IMG/VR virus record: IMGVR_UViG_3300045988_126023
Location: 1 to 53,615 of that record
Length of the DNA: 53,615 bases
Strand: one strand, 5' to 3'
From: a virus
In this document: positions 7,358-50,384 of the stretch, in pieces
Layout: every line of letters starts with the position of its first letter
How positions within the stretch are numbered: the first letter of the stretch is position 1
Notes under the pieces: generated by a model
Told to the model about the DNA's origin: nothing
The model's database searches: none
Seen by the model: only the letters and a program-made list of their open reading frames with translations
Position numbers and translations under genes: made by a program

Positions 7358-8131
7358 ATGGCTGATAATGTAATCAGAAACGACATTGTTAAACTTGATT
7401 TTGAGGTCGAGGGTTTAAAAGAACTCAAAAAACTTCAAGATGAAACCAACGAATTAAAAAAGAAACTAACAGGCGGAATAGGCGACGACGCTCTTGACGG
7501 CCTGAAAAAAGGGGCAAATGACAGTGTAAAGCCCTTGAAGAATGTTAAAGAGCAAGCGGAAAAAGTCAAAAAATCCGTCACTGATATAGGCAAAAAAGCG
7601 GCCACAACGGCCTTTAAAGGCTTAAAAAAACTGGCTGGCATTTCATTCAAAGCCCTGACCGCTGGCATTGGTACGGCGGCTACAGCACTTGGATTTCTTA
7701 TGAAAAATGCTGTGTCGGCGTATTCAGAATATGAGCAGTTATACGGCGGTATGCAAACGCTGTTAGGTGCAAAAGGCGCAAAAAGTGTTGAAGAATATGC
7801 AAAACTAACAGGAAAATCCGTTGACGCAGTACAAGGCGAATACCAAAAGATGTTAGATAGTGAAAACTATGTAATGACGAAAGCTAACGACGCATTTAAA
7901 ACGGCGGGAATGTCAGCTAATGAATACATGGAAACTATCACGTCATTTGCGGCAGCAATGGTAACGAGTGTAGGCGGAGACACAAAAAAAGCGGCTGAAT
8001 TGTCCGACATGGCAATTCAAGACATGGCCGACAACGCCAACAAAATGGGCACTCCCTTAGAGAATGTTTCTATTGTCTATTCAAACCTTGCAAGAGGTAT
8101 GTATATGACATTGGATAACTTAAAACTGGGT
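7358..8131 (+). CDS. tape measure protein, exon 1
   Basis: Coiled-coil K/A-rich N-terminus, ending ...MYMTLDNLKLG at t8131. The remaining 22 codons of the ORF (to 8197) are read-through into the intron. Confidence 0.8.
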
Positions 8132-8228
8132 AAAGAGGACTGCATTGCTCAGTATAAACCTTGTGAAAACGGGGAAACCCTTATGTTAGTAGCATAAGAC
8201 AATCCCGTGGCAAGTTGCAAAAAAAGTA

Positions 8229-8257
8229 TTGAATTTTCTGAAAACTTGTGATAAACT
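8229..8257 (+). promoter_or_regulatory. promoter-like element inside the intron, upstream of the HNH ORF (class Q)
   Basis: aaaaagtaTTGAAT-17 nt-TAAACT. Same architecture as 37547-37575 (aaaaagtaTTGAAA-17-TATAAT). Confidence 0.45.
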
Positions 8258-8293
8258 AAAAATAGCGAACACAAGGAAAAGGAGAAAATTCAA

Positions 8294-8899
8294 ATGACTT
8301 GGGTAAAAATCAAACAAAACGAAAACTATTCTATCAATGAGAACGGCGAGGTTAAGAATAACAAAAAAGGCACTTTGCTAAAATCTCATATTAACAAAAA
8401 AAGCGGTTATAAAATGGTTAGCTTGTGGCGCAATAACAAAGCGAAGCATTATACAATTCACAGGCTTTTAGCGGAAGCATTTATACCAAACCCGCAAAAT
8501 AAACCGACAGTAGACCATAAAGACGGAAACAGGCTTAATAATTCGCTTGATAATCTTAGGTGGGCTACATACGAAGAACAAAATTCAAGATTTGAAACAA
8601 TCGGAGTGAGAAGTCAAAAAGTAAAAGTAACTCACTATGAGGAAACAAGAAATTCAAGCGGTTGGGGTCATAAGTCTTGGGATAGAATAGATAGAACATT
8701 GTATTTTGACAGAATAAGTGATGTAGCCGCTTATTTTGAAGTGTCTATCGGAAACATATCTTTAATGTTAAAGAACGGCACAATCGGTAGACGAGGAAAA
8801 ATGAGAGGTTATAAGTTTGAATATGCCGAAAGTCAGAGAAAAACTTTTGCAAAAGCCCTAACGACTATCGAAAGCACAGAGAAATCTGGAAGTGAGTAG
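8294..8899 (+). CDS. HNH homing endonuclease (I-HmuI-like: NUMOD4 + HNH_3 motifs)
   Basis: WVKIKQNENYSINENGEVKN (NUMOD4-like) and TVDHKDGNRLNNSLDNLRWATYEEQN (HNH). AAGGAGAA SD. Confidence 0.85.
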   Translation: MTWVKIKQNENYSINENGEVKNNKKGTLLKSHINKKSGYKMVSLWRNNKAKHYTIHRLLAEAFIPNPQNKPTVDHKDGNRLNNSLDNLRWATYEEQNSRFETIGVRSQKVKVTHYEETRNSSGWGHKSWDRIDRTLYFDRISDVAAYFEVSIGNISLMLKNGTIGRRGKMRGYKFEYAESQRKTFAKALTTIESTEKSGSE

Positions 8900-9023
8900 A
8901 GTACACTCAAGCGAGTGGAAGTGCAAGGGGCGGCGAAAGCCGTCAAGATATAGTCTGAACTATATGGCGACATATAGCAGCCGAAAGGCGGTTACGGATT
9001 AGCGACCCGTAGCGAACATATTG

Positions 9024-12000
9024 TATGCAGGAACAAAAGAGGGCGCTACACAAATGGTTAATGACGCTGCAAAGATAGATAAAAGCGTCAAGGCAAATGA
9101 TATATCGTATGCCAACCTTGTAAAAGCTATACACGCTGTACAGGTAAAAATGGATATTTACGGTACAACGTCAAAAGAAGCCTTTGGTACTATTCAGGGT
9201 TCAATGAATACCTTTAAGGCGGCGTGGGGAAATCTTATGCCTGCCTTGATACAGGGCGGCGACGCATTTGACCAGTGTGTAAACAATCTCGTTGATAGTA
9301 TTGTCGGATTTAAAGATGAAGCGACAGGAGAAATAAAAGGCGGTCTTATTAACAACCTTATGCCCGCAGCCGAAAAGGCTCTTGAGGGTATAGGGACATT
9401 GATTGATAGATTTGTTCCGATTCTCGCTGAACAATTTCCGAAAATCGCAAAAAGATTGATACCGCCACTGATAAAAGCAGCGGTGGAGTTGGTTAAAGGT
9501 CTTGTTAAGGCGCTACCCGACTTGGTAAAAATAATAGGCTCAACCTTTTACGATATTTTCAGTGAACAATTCCCCGCTGTTGCAAAAATAGGAAAATTCT
9601 TTCAAGACAATTCCGAAAAAATAGCCAAGGGTATAAAGATAATTATACCTACCGTTCTCGGACTTGCTGCGGCATTTAAAGGCTTTAAAGCTGTAAAGTC
9701 TTTGAAATCCCTTTTCGGCAATCTGAAAGGCGGTAAGGGCGGAGCAAGTGGCAACGGCGGTATTTTGAGCACTTTTCAGAATCTCGCAAAGATGAAAACC
9801 ACAACCGTCTTAAAAGGAGTGGCAAATCTCGCTATAATTCTCGGCGCACTTGGCGGATTGCTTTATATAGCAACAAAAGTGTTCCAAAGTGGCGTTGACT
9901 TCAAAGAGATGTTACAAGTCATTATCTTGGTGGGAGCTTTGGGAGCTGTTGGAATTGCATTGGCTAAATTCATTGATATAGCGGGTAAAATCAAAATAAC
10001 GACAGCACTTAAAGGCGTTGCGAACATTGCAATCATCATAGCTGGCTTGGGAGCGCTTCTTTGGGTGGCAACAAAGGTTTTTCAAGGTGGAGTAGACTTT
10101 AAAGAAATGATTAAAGTAATCACCTTAATAGGCATTTTGGGTGTCGTTGGTACAGTTCTTGCGGTATTCGCTGGAATTGTAGGGTTAATACCCGTTTCAA
10201 CAGTCGCTTTAGGGCTGGCTAACATTGCGATTATAGTTGTCGGTCTCGGCGCTTTGCTGTTTGTTGCTACAGAGGTATTTAAAAACGGTGTTGATTTCGG
10301 AAAAATGCTACAGGTCATTTCGCTAATTGGTATTCTTGGCGTTGTAGGCAGCGTTCTCGCTGTAATGGCTGGTATCATTGGTATTATACCTTTCCCGTTA
10401 GTAATTGCGGGGCTTGCAAATATAGCGACAGTAATAGGAGGCTTAGAGCTTATCCTTGTGGCGCTTGGTGCTTTGTCTAAAATCCCTGGATTTAATGGTT
10501 TGATTGAAAGTGGTGGCGAATTGCTGGCAACGACTTTCAAGGCCATAGGTAAGGCTATCGGTTCTCTTGTAGGCGGCTTTGCAGAGGGCGTGACAAGCAG
10601 TCTCCCTCAAATAGGAGAACATTTCGCAGGATTCGCCAAAGCGTTAGAGGGTGTAGATTTTACACCGATGAAAAGTTTTTTTGACGCATTAACTTCAATA
10701 AGCGGGTTGCCGAGTTCAGGCGGAATATTCCAGTTATTTACTGGAGACCCCTACACAGGGCTTATGAAGATGATACCGATACTGCCTTTGCTTGCTGCTT
10801 CCGCAAAAGCCTTTATGGTTATTGTAGGCGATATAAAGGATTTCAGCCCGATAAGCTCATTGCTTAGCGCTCTTTCAAATGTAAGTGCTATGCCGAGTTC
10901 AGGCGGATTTTTCCAGCTATTCACGGGCACTCCGTATGAGGGTTTGCTTGAAATGGTTAAGATTTTACCGTCGCTTGGTGCAGCAGCAAGTATATTCTTT
11001 AAATTCGTGGGGGGAATAACGGACTTTAGCCCGATAAGTTCACTTCTTAATGCTTTGGCCAGCGTCAAAGAAATGCCGAGTTCGGGAGGTTTCTTTCAAC
11101 TCTTTACAGGAGACCCGTATGCAGGATTATGTAAAATGGTATCATTGCTTCCTCTGCTCGGTGCAGCAACAGGTATATTCTTTAAACTTGTAGGCGGTGT
11201 AACAGATTTCAGCCCGATTTCTTCTTTGTTGAACGCATTAGCTTCTGTTAAAGAATTGCCTAAGTCTGGCGGCTTTGCTCAGTTTTTCACTGGCGACCCA
11301 TACGCTGGATTATGCGAGATGATGTTATTGTTACCGCCGCTTGGTGCGGCAGTTAGCGCATTTTTCAAACTTGTTGACGGAATAACTGATTTTAGCGTTA
11401 TATCTTCTTTGTTTAATACTCTGTCAAGTGTTAAGGATTTACCAAAAGCGGGAGGGTTTGCTCAGTTATTTACGGGAGACCCGTACAAAGCCCTTATCTC
11501 AATGGTATTTATTCTTCCCACACTCGGACAGTCGGTAAAGGCGTTCTTTAAGGCGATTGACGGTATTGACGATTTCAGCAAAATTTCCGCTCTTTTTGCA
11601 GAGCTTGGGCAGCTCGACAAATTAGTCGGGAAAGACGGAGGACTATTCAACGCAATAGGAGACTTCTTTAACGGAAGTGAAGATTCCGCCGTGGTAATGC
11701 TTGGTGCAAGCCTCAAAAGTTTTGCTTCAGACACAAAGGACTTTTTTGCTTTAGTAAACAGTGCTAACCTTAACAAACTTAACGGAATGTGGCTTGCCTT
11801 TGCAAATGTAAAAGGCTTAGATAGCGCAGTTTCTCAGATAGTAACTAAGATTTCCGAGTTACCTAAAAAAATGGGTGACGCTCTTAAACAGGGTGGCTCA
11901 AGTCTTAGTGACGCACTTGTTAAAGTGTGGAAAGACGCTGTGCAAGCTTCGGTAGCGCCAGTAAATAAAGTGCTTGACGCTGCAAACTGGATATTGAAAG

Positions 12001-13121
12001 AGTTCGGCTCAAATAAGCGAGTGATAACATGGAAACCTTATGCAAAAGGCACAAACGGCCATAAAGGCGGAAATGCACTTGTGAATGACGGAAACGGCGC
12101 TGAATTAGTCCAAATGCCTAACGGAGAAGCGTTTATACCTACAGGTAAAAATGTGCTGATTCCTAATGCACCGAAAGGAATGAAAGTATTACCCGCAGAG
12201 CAAACCGCACAGCTTATGGGTAAGAAATCGCCTACATTTGCGTATGCAGACGGAATAGGCGACATTGATATTTGGAGCTACATAGATAATGCAAAAGGCT
12301 TGACCTCCAAAATAGCGGACAGTATCAGCTATGACGGCTTGAGCGGCTTTAGACTTGGTGTAAGTCAGGGTATGGTAACAACCTTTACAGGAGCAATGAC
12401 AAACTGGGTTGATAAGCTATTTAAAGAAGAAGGAGTTTTAGGGCTTGCAAATTATGCAGCGTCTAAGGGCGTTGCTCAATGGAAATCTACCGTTATACGA
12501 GCCTTGAAAATGGAGGGGCTGTATAGCGCCGCAAATGTCGAAAGAACTTTATTCCAAATGCAGACAGAAAGCGGAGGAAATCCGAAAGCAATAAATCTGT
12601 GGGACAGCAATGCTAAAAAGGGCATACCCTCAAAGGGCTTAATGCAGGTAATTGACCCGACTTTTAAAGCGTATGCAAGAGCGGGCTTTGACAAAAATAT
12701 ATATGACCCGTTGAGCAACATTTTAGCGGCTATCAGATACGCTGTTGCAAGATACGGCTCATTAGCAAGAGCTTTTAGAGGTGTAGGTTATGCAAACGGC
12801 GGTTTTGCAAATAAACCGAGTATATTCGGCGAGGACGGTCTTGAAGCGGCTATTCCGTTGTCGAGAAATAAACGCAGCAGAGGGTTAAACCTTTGGGCGC
12901 AGACTGGCGAAATGTTGGGCGTTTCTTATTCACCAGAGGGAGACGCAGGATATTCTAACTATATCGAGAACAACACATATTCGCCACAATTCACGCTTAA
13001 TATAAGCGGAACGAGTGATGATAGAACAATGGCACGCAAGGTTAAAAACTGGGTTAAAGAAGCGTGGGAAGATGTTCTTGACACTTACGAAAGTAAAACG
13101 CCACAGACACAAGAAGTATAA
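9024..13121 (+). CDS. tape measure protein, exon 2 (TM-hairpin repeats, 61-aa repeats, C-terminal lytic transglycosylase domain)
   Basis: Begins YAGTKEGATQMVNDAAK. SLT motif FQMQTESGGNPKAINLWDSNAKKGIPSKGLMQV...YDPLSNILAAIRY. The spliced protein is 1,623 aa. Confidence 0.85.
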   Translation, partial: YAGTKEGATQMVNDAAKIDKSVKANDISYANLVKAIHAVQVKMDIYGTTSKEAFGTIQGSMNTFKAAWGNLMPALIQGGDAFDQCVNNLVDSIVGFKDEATGEIKGGLINNLMPAAEKALEGIGTLIDRFVPILAEQFPKIAKRLIPPLIKAAVELVKGLVKALPDLVKIIGSTFYDIFSEQFPAVAKIGKFFQDNSEKIAKGIKIIIPTVLGLAAAFKGFKAVKSLKSLFGNLKGGKGGASGNGGILSTFQNLAKMKTTTVLKGVANLAIILGALGGLLYIATKVFQSGVDFKEMLQVIILVGALGAVGIALAKFIDIAGKIKITTALKGVANIAIIIAGLGALLWVATKVFQGGVDFKEMIKVITLIGILGVVGTVLAVFAGIVGLIPVSTVALGLANIAIIVVGLGALLFVATEVFKNGVDFGKMLQVISLIGILGVVGSVLAVMAGIIGIIPFPLVIAGLANIATVIGGLELILVALGALSKIPGFNGLIESGGELLATTFKAIGKAIGSLVGGFAEGVTSSLPQIGEHFAGFAKALEGVDFTPMKSFFDALTSISGLPSSGGIFQLFTGDPYTGLMKMIPILPLLAASAKAFMVIVGDIKDFSPISSLLSALSNVSAMPSSGGFFQLFTGTPYEGLLEMVKILPSLGAAASIFFKFVGGITDFSPISSLLNALASVKEMPSSGGFFQLFTGDPYAGLCKMVSLLPLLGAATGIFFKLVGGVTDFSPISSLLNALASVKELPKSGGFAQFFTGDPYAGLCEMMLLLPPLGAAVSAFFKLVDGITDFSVISSLFNTLSSVKDLPKAGGFAQLFTGDPYKALISMVFILPTLGQSVKAFFKAIDGIDDFSKISALFAELGQLDKLVGKDGGLFNAIGDFFNGSEDSAVVMLGASLKSFASDTKDFFALVNSANLNKLNGMWLAFANVKGLDSAVSQIVTKISELPKKMGDALKQGGSSLSDALVKVWKDAVQASVAPVNKVLDAANWILKEFGSNKRVITWKPYAKGTNGHKGGNALVNDGNGAELVQMPNGEAFIPTGKNVLIPNAPKGMKVLPAEQTAQLMGKKSPTFAYADGIGDIDIWSYIDNAKGLTSKIADSISYDGLSGFRLGVSQGMVTTFTGAMTNWVDKLFKEEGVLGLANYAASKGVAQWKSTVIRALKMEGLYSAANVERTLFQMQTESGGNPKAINLWDSNAKKGIPSKGLMQVIDPTFKAYARAGFDKNIYDPLSNILAAIRYAVARYGSLARAFRGVGYANGGFANKPSIFGEDGLEAAIPLSRNKRSRGLNLWAQTGEMLGVSYSPEGDAGYSNYIENNTYSPQFTLNISGTSDDRTMARKVKNWVKEAWEDVLDTYESKTPQTQEV
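9798..10490 (+). repeat. in-frame tandem repeat, about 198 bp x 3.5, encoding paired transmembrane helices in the TMP
   Basis: Units (T/S)T.LKGVANxAIIxxGLGxLLxVATKVFQxGVDFKEMxxVIxLxGxLGVVGxVLA... recur at 66-aa spacing. Confidence 0.7.
10710..11624 (+). repeat. in-frame tandem repeat, 183 bp x 5 (plus a degenerate sixth), in the TMP
   Basis: P(S/K)(S/A)GGF(F/A)QLFTGDPYxGLxxMxxxLPxLGAAxxxFFKxVGGxTDFSPISSLLNALASVKE. Unit starts at 10710, 10893, 11076, 11259 and 11442. Confidence 0.85.
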
Positions 13122-22378: not shown

Positions 22379-22424
22379 TTTGTGCATTTTGCCAACTTGA
22401 TTTTTAACACAAAAGTGTTATAAT
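22379..22424 (+). promoter_or_regulatory. promoter cassette Pe1 (TTTGT-N4-TTTGC box, -35, extended -10)
   Basis: TTTGTgcatTTTGCcaacTTGATT-16-(gtgt)TATAAT. The conserved leader aaaggtacaaagtaaagaaagagg runs to the ATG at 22458. Confidence 0.65.
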
Positions 22425-24114: not shown

Positions 24115-24333
24115 ATGAAAGAATTAAAAACAATAACAGAGTGTCAGCTTTTATACTTTGCTTATTACTCATTGCTTGAAAGAATATCTCACGAAGAAGA
24201 AATAAACGAGAGAACAAAAAAAGAGTGTGGTAGAGATAATTGTATTTGTCAAAGCCGATTAAAGATGTATAACGAGCAGTTAGAAGAAGTAAGAGAAAGA
24301 ATACTTGAAATAGAAAACAACAACGCAGAGTGA
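24115..24333 (+). CDS. hypothetical protein
   Basis: 72 aa with an AAGAAAGAGG SD. Confidence 0.55.
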   Translation: MKELKTITECQLLYFAYYSLLERISHEEEINERTKKECGRDNCICQSRLKMYNEQLEEVRERILEIENNNAE

Positions 24334-24402
24334 CCGCCGAAAGGCGGGTAATGCGGCGGCAGCGGTCACAAGCCCGCAGTAAAAAAGAAAGGTGAAGAAA
24401 AA

Positions 24403-37546: not shown

Positions 37547-37575
37547 TTGAAATTATAACATTATTGTGATATAAT
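37547..37575 (+). promoter_or_regulatory. class-Q promoter
   Basis: aaaaagtaTTGAAA-17-(tga)TATAAT, upstream of the small ORF at 37608. Confidence 0.6.
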
Positions 37576-40566: not shown

Positions 40567-40700
40567 AGTGAATGTTAATATTGAGTTCACATTTAGTTGT
40601 TAAAATATAATTAGCGGATAGCCTGACGGGGCGAAAAGGAAAAGCCTTATTCCCTGCCGCTAATTTTATTTATAAGGCGAATTACAGAAAGGCAGTAATT

Positions 40701-42484: not shown

Positions 42485-42529
42485 TTTGTACACTTTGCGA
42501 ATTGAAATATATCTCAAATGTGTTATAAT
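42485..42529 (+). promoter_or_regulatory. promoter cassette Pe6
   Basis: TTTGTacacTTTGCgaaTTGAAA-16-(tgtgt)TATAAT, followed by the leader aaagacacagtaaagaaagagagg. Confidence 0.65.
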
Positions 42530-50309: not shown

Positions 50310-50384
50310 GCTGATGTGGCGCAATGGCAGCGCAACTGATTTGTAATCAGTAGGTTGTCCGTTCAAGTCGGACTATCAGCTCCA
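50310..50384 (+). tRNA. trnT: tRNA-Thr (anticodon UGU), CCA-encoded
   Basis: Hand-folded cloverleaf: acceptor GCTGATG/TATCAGC, D arm GCGC-AATGGCA-GCGC, anticodon arm ACTGA-TTTGTAA-TCAGT, variable loop AGGTT, T arm GTCCG-TTCAAGT-CGGAC, then TCCA. U8, A14, GG, U33 and TTC are present. Confidence 0.85.

Follow-up and report, generated by a model that had tools for sequence, protein, structure and literature searches.

The question raised by this locus is why the tape-measure gene of a virus, recorded as IMGVR_UViG_3300045988_126023, appears to be broken in two. In the 53,615-nt stretch of DNA analysed here (hereafter the window), three consecutive open reading frames (ORFs) lie on the plus strand at 7358..8197 (279 aa), 8294..8899 (201 aa) and 9021..13121 (1,366 aa), of which the outer two encode tape-measure protein (TMP) and the middle one an HNH endonuclease. 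An original prediction, made from the letters of the window, held that the two TMP ORFs belong to one gene split by a group I intron like that of the T4 td gene, and all of the strings and coordinates it quoted are present exactly as placed. We propose, with a probability of about 0.9, that positions 8132–9023 constitute a self-splicing, mobile group I intron with a T4 td-like IA2 architecture, situated within the tape-measure gene. The region would then be divided as follows:

7358..8131, plus strand: tape-measure exon 1, 258 codons, matching Lactococcus and Streptococcus phage TMPs
8132..9023, plus strand: predicted group I intron, 892 nt, subgroup IA2 (td-like), without P2
9024..13121, plus strand: tape-measure exon 2, 1,365 codons and a stop, with a C-terminal SLT lytic transglycosylase domain

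The boundaries of the insert follow from the protein that its removal restores. When position 8131 is joined to 9024 the reading is in frame for 1,623 codons and a stop with no internal stops, and passes through the junction as ...MTLDNLKLG|YAGTKEGATQ (...YSNLARGMYMTLDNLKLG|YAGTKEGATQMVNDAAK... in letters); unspliced, exon 1 instead runs on to a stop at 8195–8197 and yields the 279-aa product. The insertion point thus immediately follows the Gly codon in LDNLKLG|Y(G/A)GTK, a conserved motif, and at the DNA level the predicted ligated junction is ...AAACTGGGT|TATGCAGGA... (GGT|TAT), the intron-less form of the site reading ...GATAACTTAAAACTGGGTTATGCAGGAACA... across it. In Streptococcus phage SA01 the tape measure is unbroken and reads ...AMLDNLKLGYGGTKAEMQ / ...YQSLARGNYAMLDNLKLGYGGTKAEMQRLIKDAAS.... 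A query of 160 aa centred on the junction, compared by tblastn with 50,697 phage records, matched 379 of them, and because a single place covers at least 80% of the query in 361 of the 379, intron-less alleles are the rule. The insert therefore breaks a strongly conserved motif and neither adds nor removes a residue. The in-frame joining at 8131|9024 is in this way borne out by the 1,623 codons and by the contiguous motif of intron-less homologues, and the conservation of the motif, put forward in the original prediction, is verified by SA01 and the phage records.

The nearest tape measures are from Acutalibacteraceae and Eggerthella phages, at 53–55% aa identity. A megablast comparison of 25 kb of the window with phage genomes gave no match, the phage itself being absent from that collection, and NCBIfam gave none for the HNH protein or for the N-terminus of the spliced TMP. 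An SLT lytic transglycosylase domain, as at the end of exon 2, is known in some tape measures of Gram-positive siphophages. Two other kinds of intervening element were considered and rejected: an intein, as the insert carries stops in the exon frame, and a group II intron, as there is no reverse transcriptase/maturase ORF and the only ORF of the intron is that of the HNH enzyme.

Relatives of the insert were gathered from public collections with a 25-base pattern taken from its 5' core. The pattern matches 42 viral contigs and seven genome contigs, the latter from a Ruminococcus metagenome-assembled genome (MAG), Pseudoramibacter porci, Clostridium celatum, a Clostridium MAG and Eubacteriales MAGs. 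At every locus with readable upstream sequence (48/48) it directly follows ...AAACTGGGT (CTGGGT, the Leu-Gly of LDNLKLG), as it does in the window. Complete introns are present at 45 loci, 35 of them distinct, in phages of Lactococcus (r1t and 28201), Streptococcus and Clostridia. The window core is 63–75.5% identical to those of 21 relatives, so that even the nearest is no closer than 75.5%, and its enzyme is at most 65% identical to theirs. A single conserved tape-measure codon has thus been colonised by one intron family in phages of Lactococcus, Streptococcus and several Clostridia.

The 35 distinct introns comprise 25 with an ORF-sized insert (834–928 nt) and 10 that are ORF-less (269–407 nt). 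Nine of the latter are mini-introns of 269–325 nt (L035, L028, L014, L018, L013, L016, L019, L010 and L053), and the tenth, L006 (407 nt), retains only an ORF remnant; in L033/L047 (865 nt), which is full-length, no ORF on the scanned strand exceeds 42 aa. The ORF-less, decayed and full forms at the same codon look like stages of endonuclease loss, and their coexistence fits the stages expected of a homing-endonuclease life cycle. Among Lactococcus phages the intron is polymorphic, being present in r1t, 28201, 50901 and 62501 and not in phismq86, 86501, 63301 and phiLC3. Mobility of the intron is supported by this presence/absence polymorphism among related phages together with the ORF-less and decayed forms. 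Matches to the 3' core extend to other phage records, among them Aeromonas phage 25 (DNA polymerase gene 43), SPO1 (gene 31) and a feature in a Pseudomonas phage that carries the annotation 'Intron_gpI'.

The insert can be folded by hand into a complete group I core, with the following elements:

8125–8131 with 8147–8153, plus strand: P1, exon ACUGGGU with the internal guide GCUCAGU, 7 bp
8140–8145 with 9025–9030, plus strand: P10, CUGCAU with exon-2 AUGCAG, also in the minimum free energy (MFE) fold
8159–8165 with 8922–8928, plus strand: P3, CCUUGUG with UGCAAGG, 99.4% paired, two pairs compensatory (UA/CG/AU)
8169–8174 with 8203–8208, plus strand: P4, ACGGGG with UCCCGU, 100% paired, enclosing P5
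8180–8185 with 8193–8198, plus strand: P5, CUUAUG with CAUAAG, the proximal part covarying
8209–8211 with 8855–8857, plus strand: P6, GGC with GCC, 98.5% paired
8216–8222 with 8845–8851, plus strand: P6a, UGCAAAA with UUUUGCA, 90% paired, with the ORF in its loop
8863–8867 with 8951–8955, plus strand: P7, GACUA with UAGUC, invariant and 100% paired, pseudoknotted with P3
8877–8888, plus strand: P7.1 hairpin, CAGA-GAAA-UCUG, found by the MFE fold
8904–8917, plus strand: P7.2 hairpin, CACUC-AAGC-GAGUG, 99.1% paired, four of five pairs compensatory
8929–8944, plus strand: P8 hairpin, GGCGGC-GAAA-GCCGUC, 89% paired, all six pairs compensatory, in the MFE fold
8945–8955, plus strand: J8/7 AAGAUA and the P7 3' strand UAGUC, together the string most highly conserved in group I cores
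8960–8977, plus strand: P9, GCGA loop
8980–8989, plus strand: P9.1, GAAA loop
8993–8997 with 9007–9011, plus strand: P9.2, UACGG with CCGUA
9023, plus strand: terminal guanosine (omega-G) at the predicted 3' splice site; all relatives end in G before TAYGG

Between P1 and P3 there is only AUAAA, and no P2. The P1 wobble U8131.G8147 falls exactly at the 5' splice site and is U.G in all 22 sequences of the alignment described below, in which P1 is 100% paired. The core strings aacggggaaaccc (8168–8180), tagtag (8187), acaatcccgtgg (8199–8210) and gtcaagatatagtctgaac (8942–8960) are in place, and the intron ends in gaacatattg (9014–9023), the last base being G. A 7-bp P1 with U.G at the splice site, a terminal G at 9023 and two GAAA hairpins (8931–8942 and 8980–8989) had all been noted in the original prediction and are indeed in the sequence. 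P7.1 and P7.2, placed between the P7 5' strand and P3', define subgroup IA2. Relatives also have a hairpin at the P7.1 position, of variable length. An extra hairpin, AUGCC-UUUAGC-GGCAU, occurs in the P1 loop of L010, L016 and L041, with a shorter version in L014 and L039, and is absent from the window.

The hand-drawn structure (P1, P3–P9.2 and P10) was tested on an alignment of 22 diverse relatives from which the ORF loop had been removed. Standard pairs occupy 90.9% of cells, as against 26.8–41.4% when the 3' partners are slid by 1–3 columns, and compensatory changes on both sides are seen in 44 of 77 pairs. The covariation score is 0.412 compared with 0.05–0.08 for the slid controls, and none of 500 shuffles reaches any of the observed measures. 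Compensatory changes fall in P3, P4, P6, P6a, P7.2, P8, P9, P9.1 and P9.2, with P1 and P7 invariant; P6 and P6a together show them in nine of 10 pairs, and P9, P9.1 and P9.2, which are 97–100% paired, in 11 of 15. P10 covaries with exon 2 (CUGCAU/AUGCAG in the window, CACCAU/AUGGUG in L010, CGGCAU/AUGCCG in L042) and is convincing case by case. The MFE fold of an ORF-deleted construct of the window, a method unable to represent the P3/P7 pseudoknot, independently recovers P3–P6a, P7.1, P7.2, P8, P9, P9.1, P9.2 and P10, with z = -4.3 relative to shuffles. The assignment to td-like group I introns is therefore borne out by compensatory changes throughout P3–P9.2, including the IA2-specific P7.2, and by the core strings shared with td that are described below.

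Several points weigh against this conclusion. The structure was derived from the window sequence itself, which favours it over the slid controls, and the ORF was excised from the constructs by hand. The search pattern fixes 23 bases of the 5' core, so that the invariance of P1 and of the P3 and P4 5' strands is partly by construction; for P1, whose guide sequence CTCAGT was contained in the pattern, it is not independent evidence. P10 is not conserved family-wide (61% paired), and P10, P7.1 and distal P5 are out of register across relatives. In scans of the whole window there is no match to the Rfam group I model, RF00028, at its gathering score, and a permissive Rfam scan likewise finds no group I match at E<=0.01; a scan of 1 kb gives an RF00028 match that is sub-threshold, at 37 bits against a gathering score of 50 (E=1.2e-7).

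The 606-nt ORF within the P6a loop accounts for the low RF00028 score, because it causes the 5' half of the model to be aligned with coding sequence. In the 1-kb alignment the match is clean at J6/7-P7 (AACGACUA), P3', P8, J8/7-P7' (AAGAUAUAGUCU) and P9, and the J8/7-P7' string (AAGAUAUAGUC) agrees with the RF00028 consensus. Among ORF-less homologues at this codon, four score above the gathering threshold, with 57.9, 53, 52 and 51 bits. The outcome of the covariance-model check put forward in the original prediction is thus mixed, sub-threshold for the window itself and above threshold for these ORF-less homologues.

These results also bear on the possibility that there is no intron at all, and that a free-standing HNH gene has been inserted between two separately translated tail genes whose products form a two-polypeptide tape measure. 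This is how the region is annotated: the ENA gene calls for the metagenome scaffold that the window represents in full (ERZ28568063, scaffold_722, 53,615 bp) give 279-aa and 1,355-aa tape-measure products and the 201-aa product as separate genes, the RefSeq/GenBank records of r1t, 28201 and Javan520 likewise contain two or more TMP fragments and an HNH gene, and free-standing HNH genes are common in phages. However, the ORF is flanked by approximately 290 nt of non-coding sequence in which an RNA structure with the 44 compensated pairs is conserved, and ORF-less versions of 269–325 nt that pass RF00028 occupy exactly the same codon. Exon 2 lacks an ATG or ribosome-binding site of its own at the junction, the mechanical ORF starting at a TTG (9021–9023) that straddles the 3' splice site, and the motif interrupted at the junction is continuous in homologues that lack the intron. 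We regard two independent tail genes as extremely improbable.

With the intron as the preferred reading, mis-annotation of the tape measure is systematic in these records. The feature has been missed by gene callers, and the annotation can be corrected; the real product would be one tape measure of 1,623 aa, so that a tail length deduced from the fragments would be wrong.

The ORF carried by the intron lies in the P6a loop and is preceded by a translation signal:

8280–8284, plus strand: ribosome-binding site AGGAG, 9 nt before the ATG, as read from the sequence
8294..8899, plus strand: HNH homing-endonuclease gene of the I-HmuI type, 606 nt, 201 aa, ATG to TAG

The protein matches Pfam HNH_3 with 39.9 bits (cut-off 24.8) and an N-terminal NUMOD4-type module with 31.7 bits (cut-off 23.4), and PHROG 59 (HNH endonuclease) with E=8e-42. 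The only PDB match is to I-HmuI (1U3E, E=5e-15), in which residues 1–94 align with residues 1–94 and VDHKDGN...NLRW is aligned; the aligned Asp-His and Asn (DH...N) we take to be the catalytic residues of I-HmuI. It is 54–65% identical to the ORFs of 24 distinct related introns (E 1e-63 to 1e-87). The enzyme part of the earlier claim, an I-HmuI-type HNH endonuclease with its own promoter, is thus upheld by HNH_3, NUMOD4 and 1U3E; the promoter part is plausible, for the reasons given below.

The last 55 nt of the ORF overlap P6a', P6', J6/7, the P7 5' strand and P7.1, and the stop TAG (8897–8899) lies within GAGUAGAGUAC, a conserved string of the core. The ORFs of most relatives end upstream of P7. 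Because the ORF end overlaps P6a', P6, P7 and P7.1, translation of the HNH gene and folding of the ribozyme should be mutually exclusive on the same RNA.

This overlap, the sub-threshold RF00028 score and the decay evident elsewhere in the family (L033/L047 and L006) might be taken to mean that the intron is a relic which no longer splices efficiently, and that the window derives from a defective prophage with a broken tape-measure gene. We consider this very improbable. All core helices of the window are fully paired and the invariant core strings are intact, both exons are open over 1,623 codons, and the HNH ORF is undamaged, its catalytic DH...N motif included. Moreover, the 1-kb alignment attributes the low Rfam score to the ORF insertion and not to mismatches in the core.

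Upstream of the endonuclease gene there is a candidate promoter within the intron:

8229–8257, plus strand: promoter-like site, TTGAAT-17-TAAACT, its -10 extended by TG (-15/-14), 36 nt upstream of the ATG

It is likely that this site serves as a promoter for the endonuclease. A TTGAxx-17-TAxAxT sequence is found at intron position 88–111 in about 15 of 22 distinct ORF-bearing relatives, most of them with TG, and the window site is at the same position; for the remaining ORF-bearing relatives the scoring chose another site. The stronger copies among relatives agree with the consensus at 9–11 of 12 positions (r1t TTGACT-17-TAAAAT, 10/12; L025/L043/L046, 11/12). Within the window, TTGAA-N12-14-TGTGATAWAMT occurs only at 8229 and 37547, where 0.00 are expected, and the looser TTGA-N15-17-TGnTAWAMT at four sites (8229, 22397, 37547 and 42502), all on the plus strand, where 0.17 are expected. 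T4 I-TevI is likewise expressed from promoters within the td intron.

A less probable alternative is that the intron is real and the promoter non-functional, in which case the template for endonuclease synthesis would be either the late tape-measure pre-mRNA or the excised intron. The window site agrees with the consensus at only 8 of 12 positions, has a poor -10 (TAAACT), is weaker than the copies in relatives and is absent from the list given by a simple consensus promoter scan. That scan returned 12 sites in 6.5 kb where 12.1 are expected, and AT-rich intron loops readily yield promoter-like strings. However, the positional match in relatives persists though the loop is otherwise divergent, stronger copies exist, and the TG-extended motif recurs at the three other plus-strand sites well above expectation. 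We therefore favour a functional promoter within the intron. The three further extended -10 sites (22397–22424, 37547–37575 and 42502–42529, all plus strand) probably mark the phage's own transcription units.

Taken with the structure, these features suggest how the element could operate. The late transcript would run through the intron and the RNA would fold, with exon-1 ACUGGGU and the guide GCUCAGU forming P1, whose U.G pair lies at the splice site. Attack after U8131 by a guanosine from outside the RNA, held in P7, would follow; P10 (CUGCAU with exon-2 AUGCAG) and the terminal G9023 would align the 3' splice site, and exon ligation would give one mRNA for the 1,623-aa tape measure. The cassette in the P6a loop would be autonomous, with its extended -10 promoter, its ribosome-binding site and the 201-aa HNH/NUMOD4 endonuclease. 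In a mixed infection, tape-measure alleles that lack the intron may be nicked or cut close to the LDNLKLG motif by the putative endonuclease, and repair would then copy the intron in (homing).

It is conceivable that the intron is more than a passenger, and acts as a switch governing the timing or dosage of the tape measure, although we think this improbable. Two mechanisms could be envisaged. In the window and its two nearest relatives (L008 and L042) the ORF extends through P6a', P6', P7 and P7.1, and the passage of ribosomes along the HNH gene would open up the helix that binds guanosine. Alternatively, in about 12 of 22 relatives (e.g. L001, L003, L025 and L043) P7.1 forms a longer hairpin with 6–7 consecutive T directly after it (alignment columns ~190–228); this arrangement lies inside the intron, upstream of exon 2, looks like an intrinsic terminator and could keep transcription from reaching exon 2 in those relatives. 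The P7.1 of the window is a short GAAA hairpin with no T-run, and the AT-rich P7.1/T-run version of r1t was not listed by a simple scan. If either mechanism were true, the amount of full-length tape measure would be set by competition among ribozyme folding, HNH translation and termination, and tail assembly would be coupled to the expression of a selfish element.

The closest known counterparts of the window intron are those of the r1t type, in r1t, the P335-type phages 28201, 50901 and 62501 and Streptococcus prophage Javan520. The r1t record lists ORF40 (TMP), ORF41 (HNH) and ORF42 (TMP), and alignment places the same intron at the site used in the window. These introns have the same insertion point, after CTGGGT of LDNLKLG, a homologous core (64–65% identity over ~292 aligned positions), an HNH/NUMOD4 enzyme with 57–59% aa identity to that of the window, and the same positions of the ORF (P6a loop) and promoter. 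They differ in host clade, in P7.1, which is a long hairpin followed by a T-run in r1t and a short GAAA hairpin in the window, and in the end of the ORF, which stops before P7 in r1t and extends 55 nt into P6a'–P7.1 in the window. There are compensatory differences between the two in P3, P4, P6, P6a, P7.2, P8, P9.1 and P9.2.

The T4 td intron (IA2, I-TevI) has the same core order, with P7.1/P7.2 between P7 and P3' and with P9.1/P9.2, and as in the window its ORF lies in the P6a loop with the ORF end reaching J6/7. Pairwise alignment of the two halves gives 71% and 75% identity over aligned columns, and the strings AAACGGGGAA, AGACAATCCCGTG, CCTAACGACTATC, GAGATATAGTCTG, GGAGTAG, ATGGYGACAT, GATTARCGACC and GAACATAWTG are common to both. 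However, td has a P2 hairpin where the window has only AUAAA between P1 and P3, its enzyme is of the GIY-YIG type (I-TevI) rather than HNH, and its host gene, thymidylate synthase, is not structural, unlike the tape measure. The DNA polymerase introns of SPO1 and SP82 (I-HmuI/I-HmuII) carry the same type of endonuclease as the window, and SPO1 gene 31 matches the J6/7-P7 region of the window intron at the DNA level, but their host gene and target site are different. Similarity between I-HmuI and the window enzyme is confined to the N-terminal 94 residues, which align; the C-terminal DNA-binding part has no detectable similarity.

The group I intron of the lysin gene in Streptococcus thermophilus phages offers a further parallel. 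In common with the window family, it interrupts a late gene of Firmicutes siphophages, belongs to group IA, and recurs widely at one conserved site in both full-length and ORF-deleted forms; the host gene, lysin, is different. This intron and its deletion derivatives are attributed to Foley et al. 2000 in PMC3952083 and PMC5601072. Introns are also documented in the Tuc2009 capsid gene and in mycobacteriophage capsid and tail genes (PMC3706429), and, through a reference in PMC7838156, in the LL-H terminase gene. PMC4177764 names r1t as one of the phages that contain group I-like introns, with van Sinderen et al. 1996 as its source. The view that introns in phage structural genes are uncommon therefore overstated the novelty of this one, as such introns are documented and the r1t type was first seen in r1t. 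The window intron is a divergent addition to the established r1t-type family and not a new kind of element, and knowledge of group I introns is unchanged, both family and mechanism being established.

Other RNA elements are present in the window, away from the tape-measure gene:

24324–24377, plus strand: type-P5 twister ribozyme (RF02684), self-cleaving, full-length, 61.4 bits against a gathering score of 37.6 (E=2e-10)
40611–40677, plus strand: int-alpA RNA motif (RF02996), 56 bits against a gathering score of 35.8
50310–50381, plus strand: one tRNA gene, 66.3 bits

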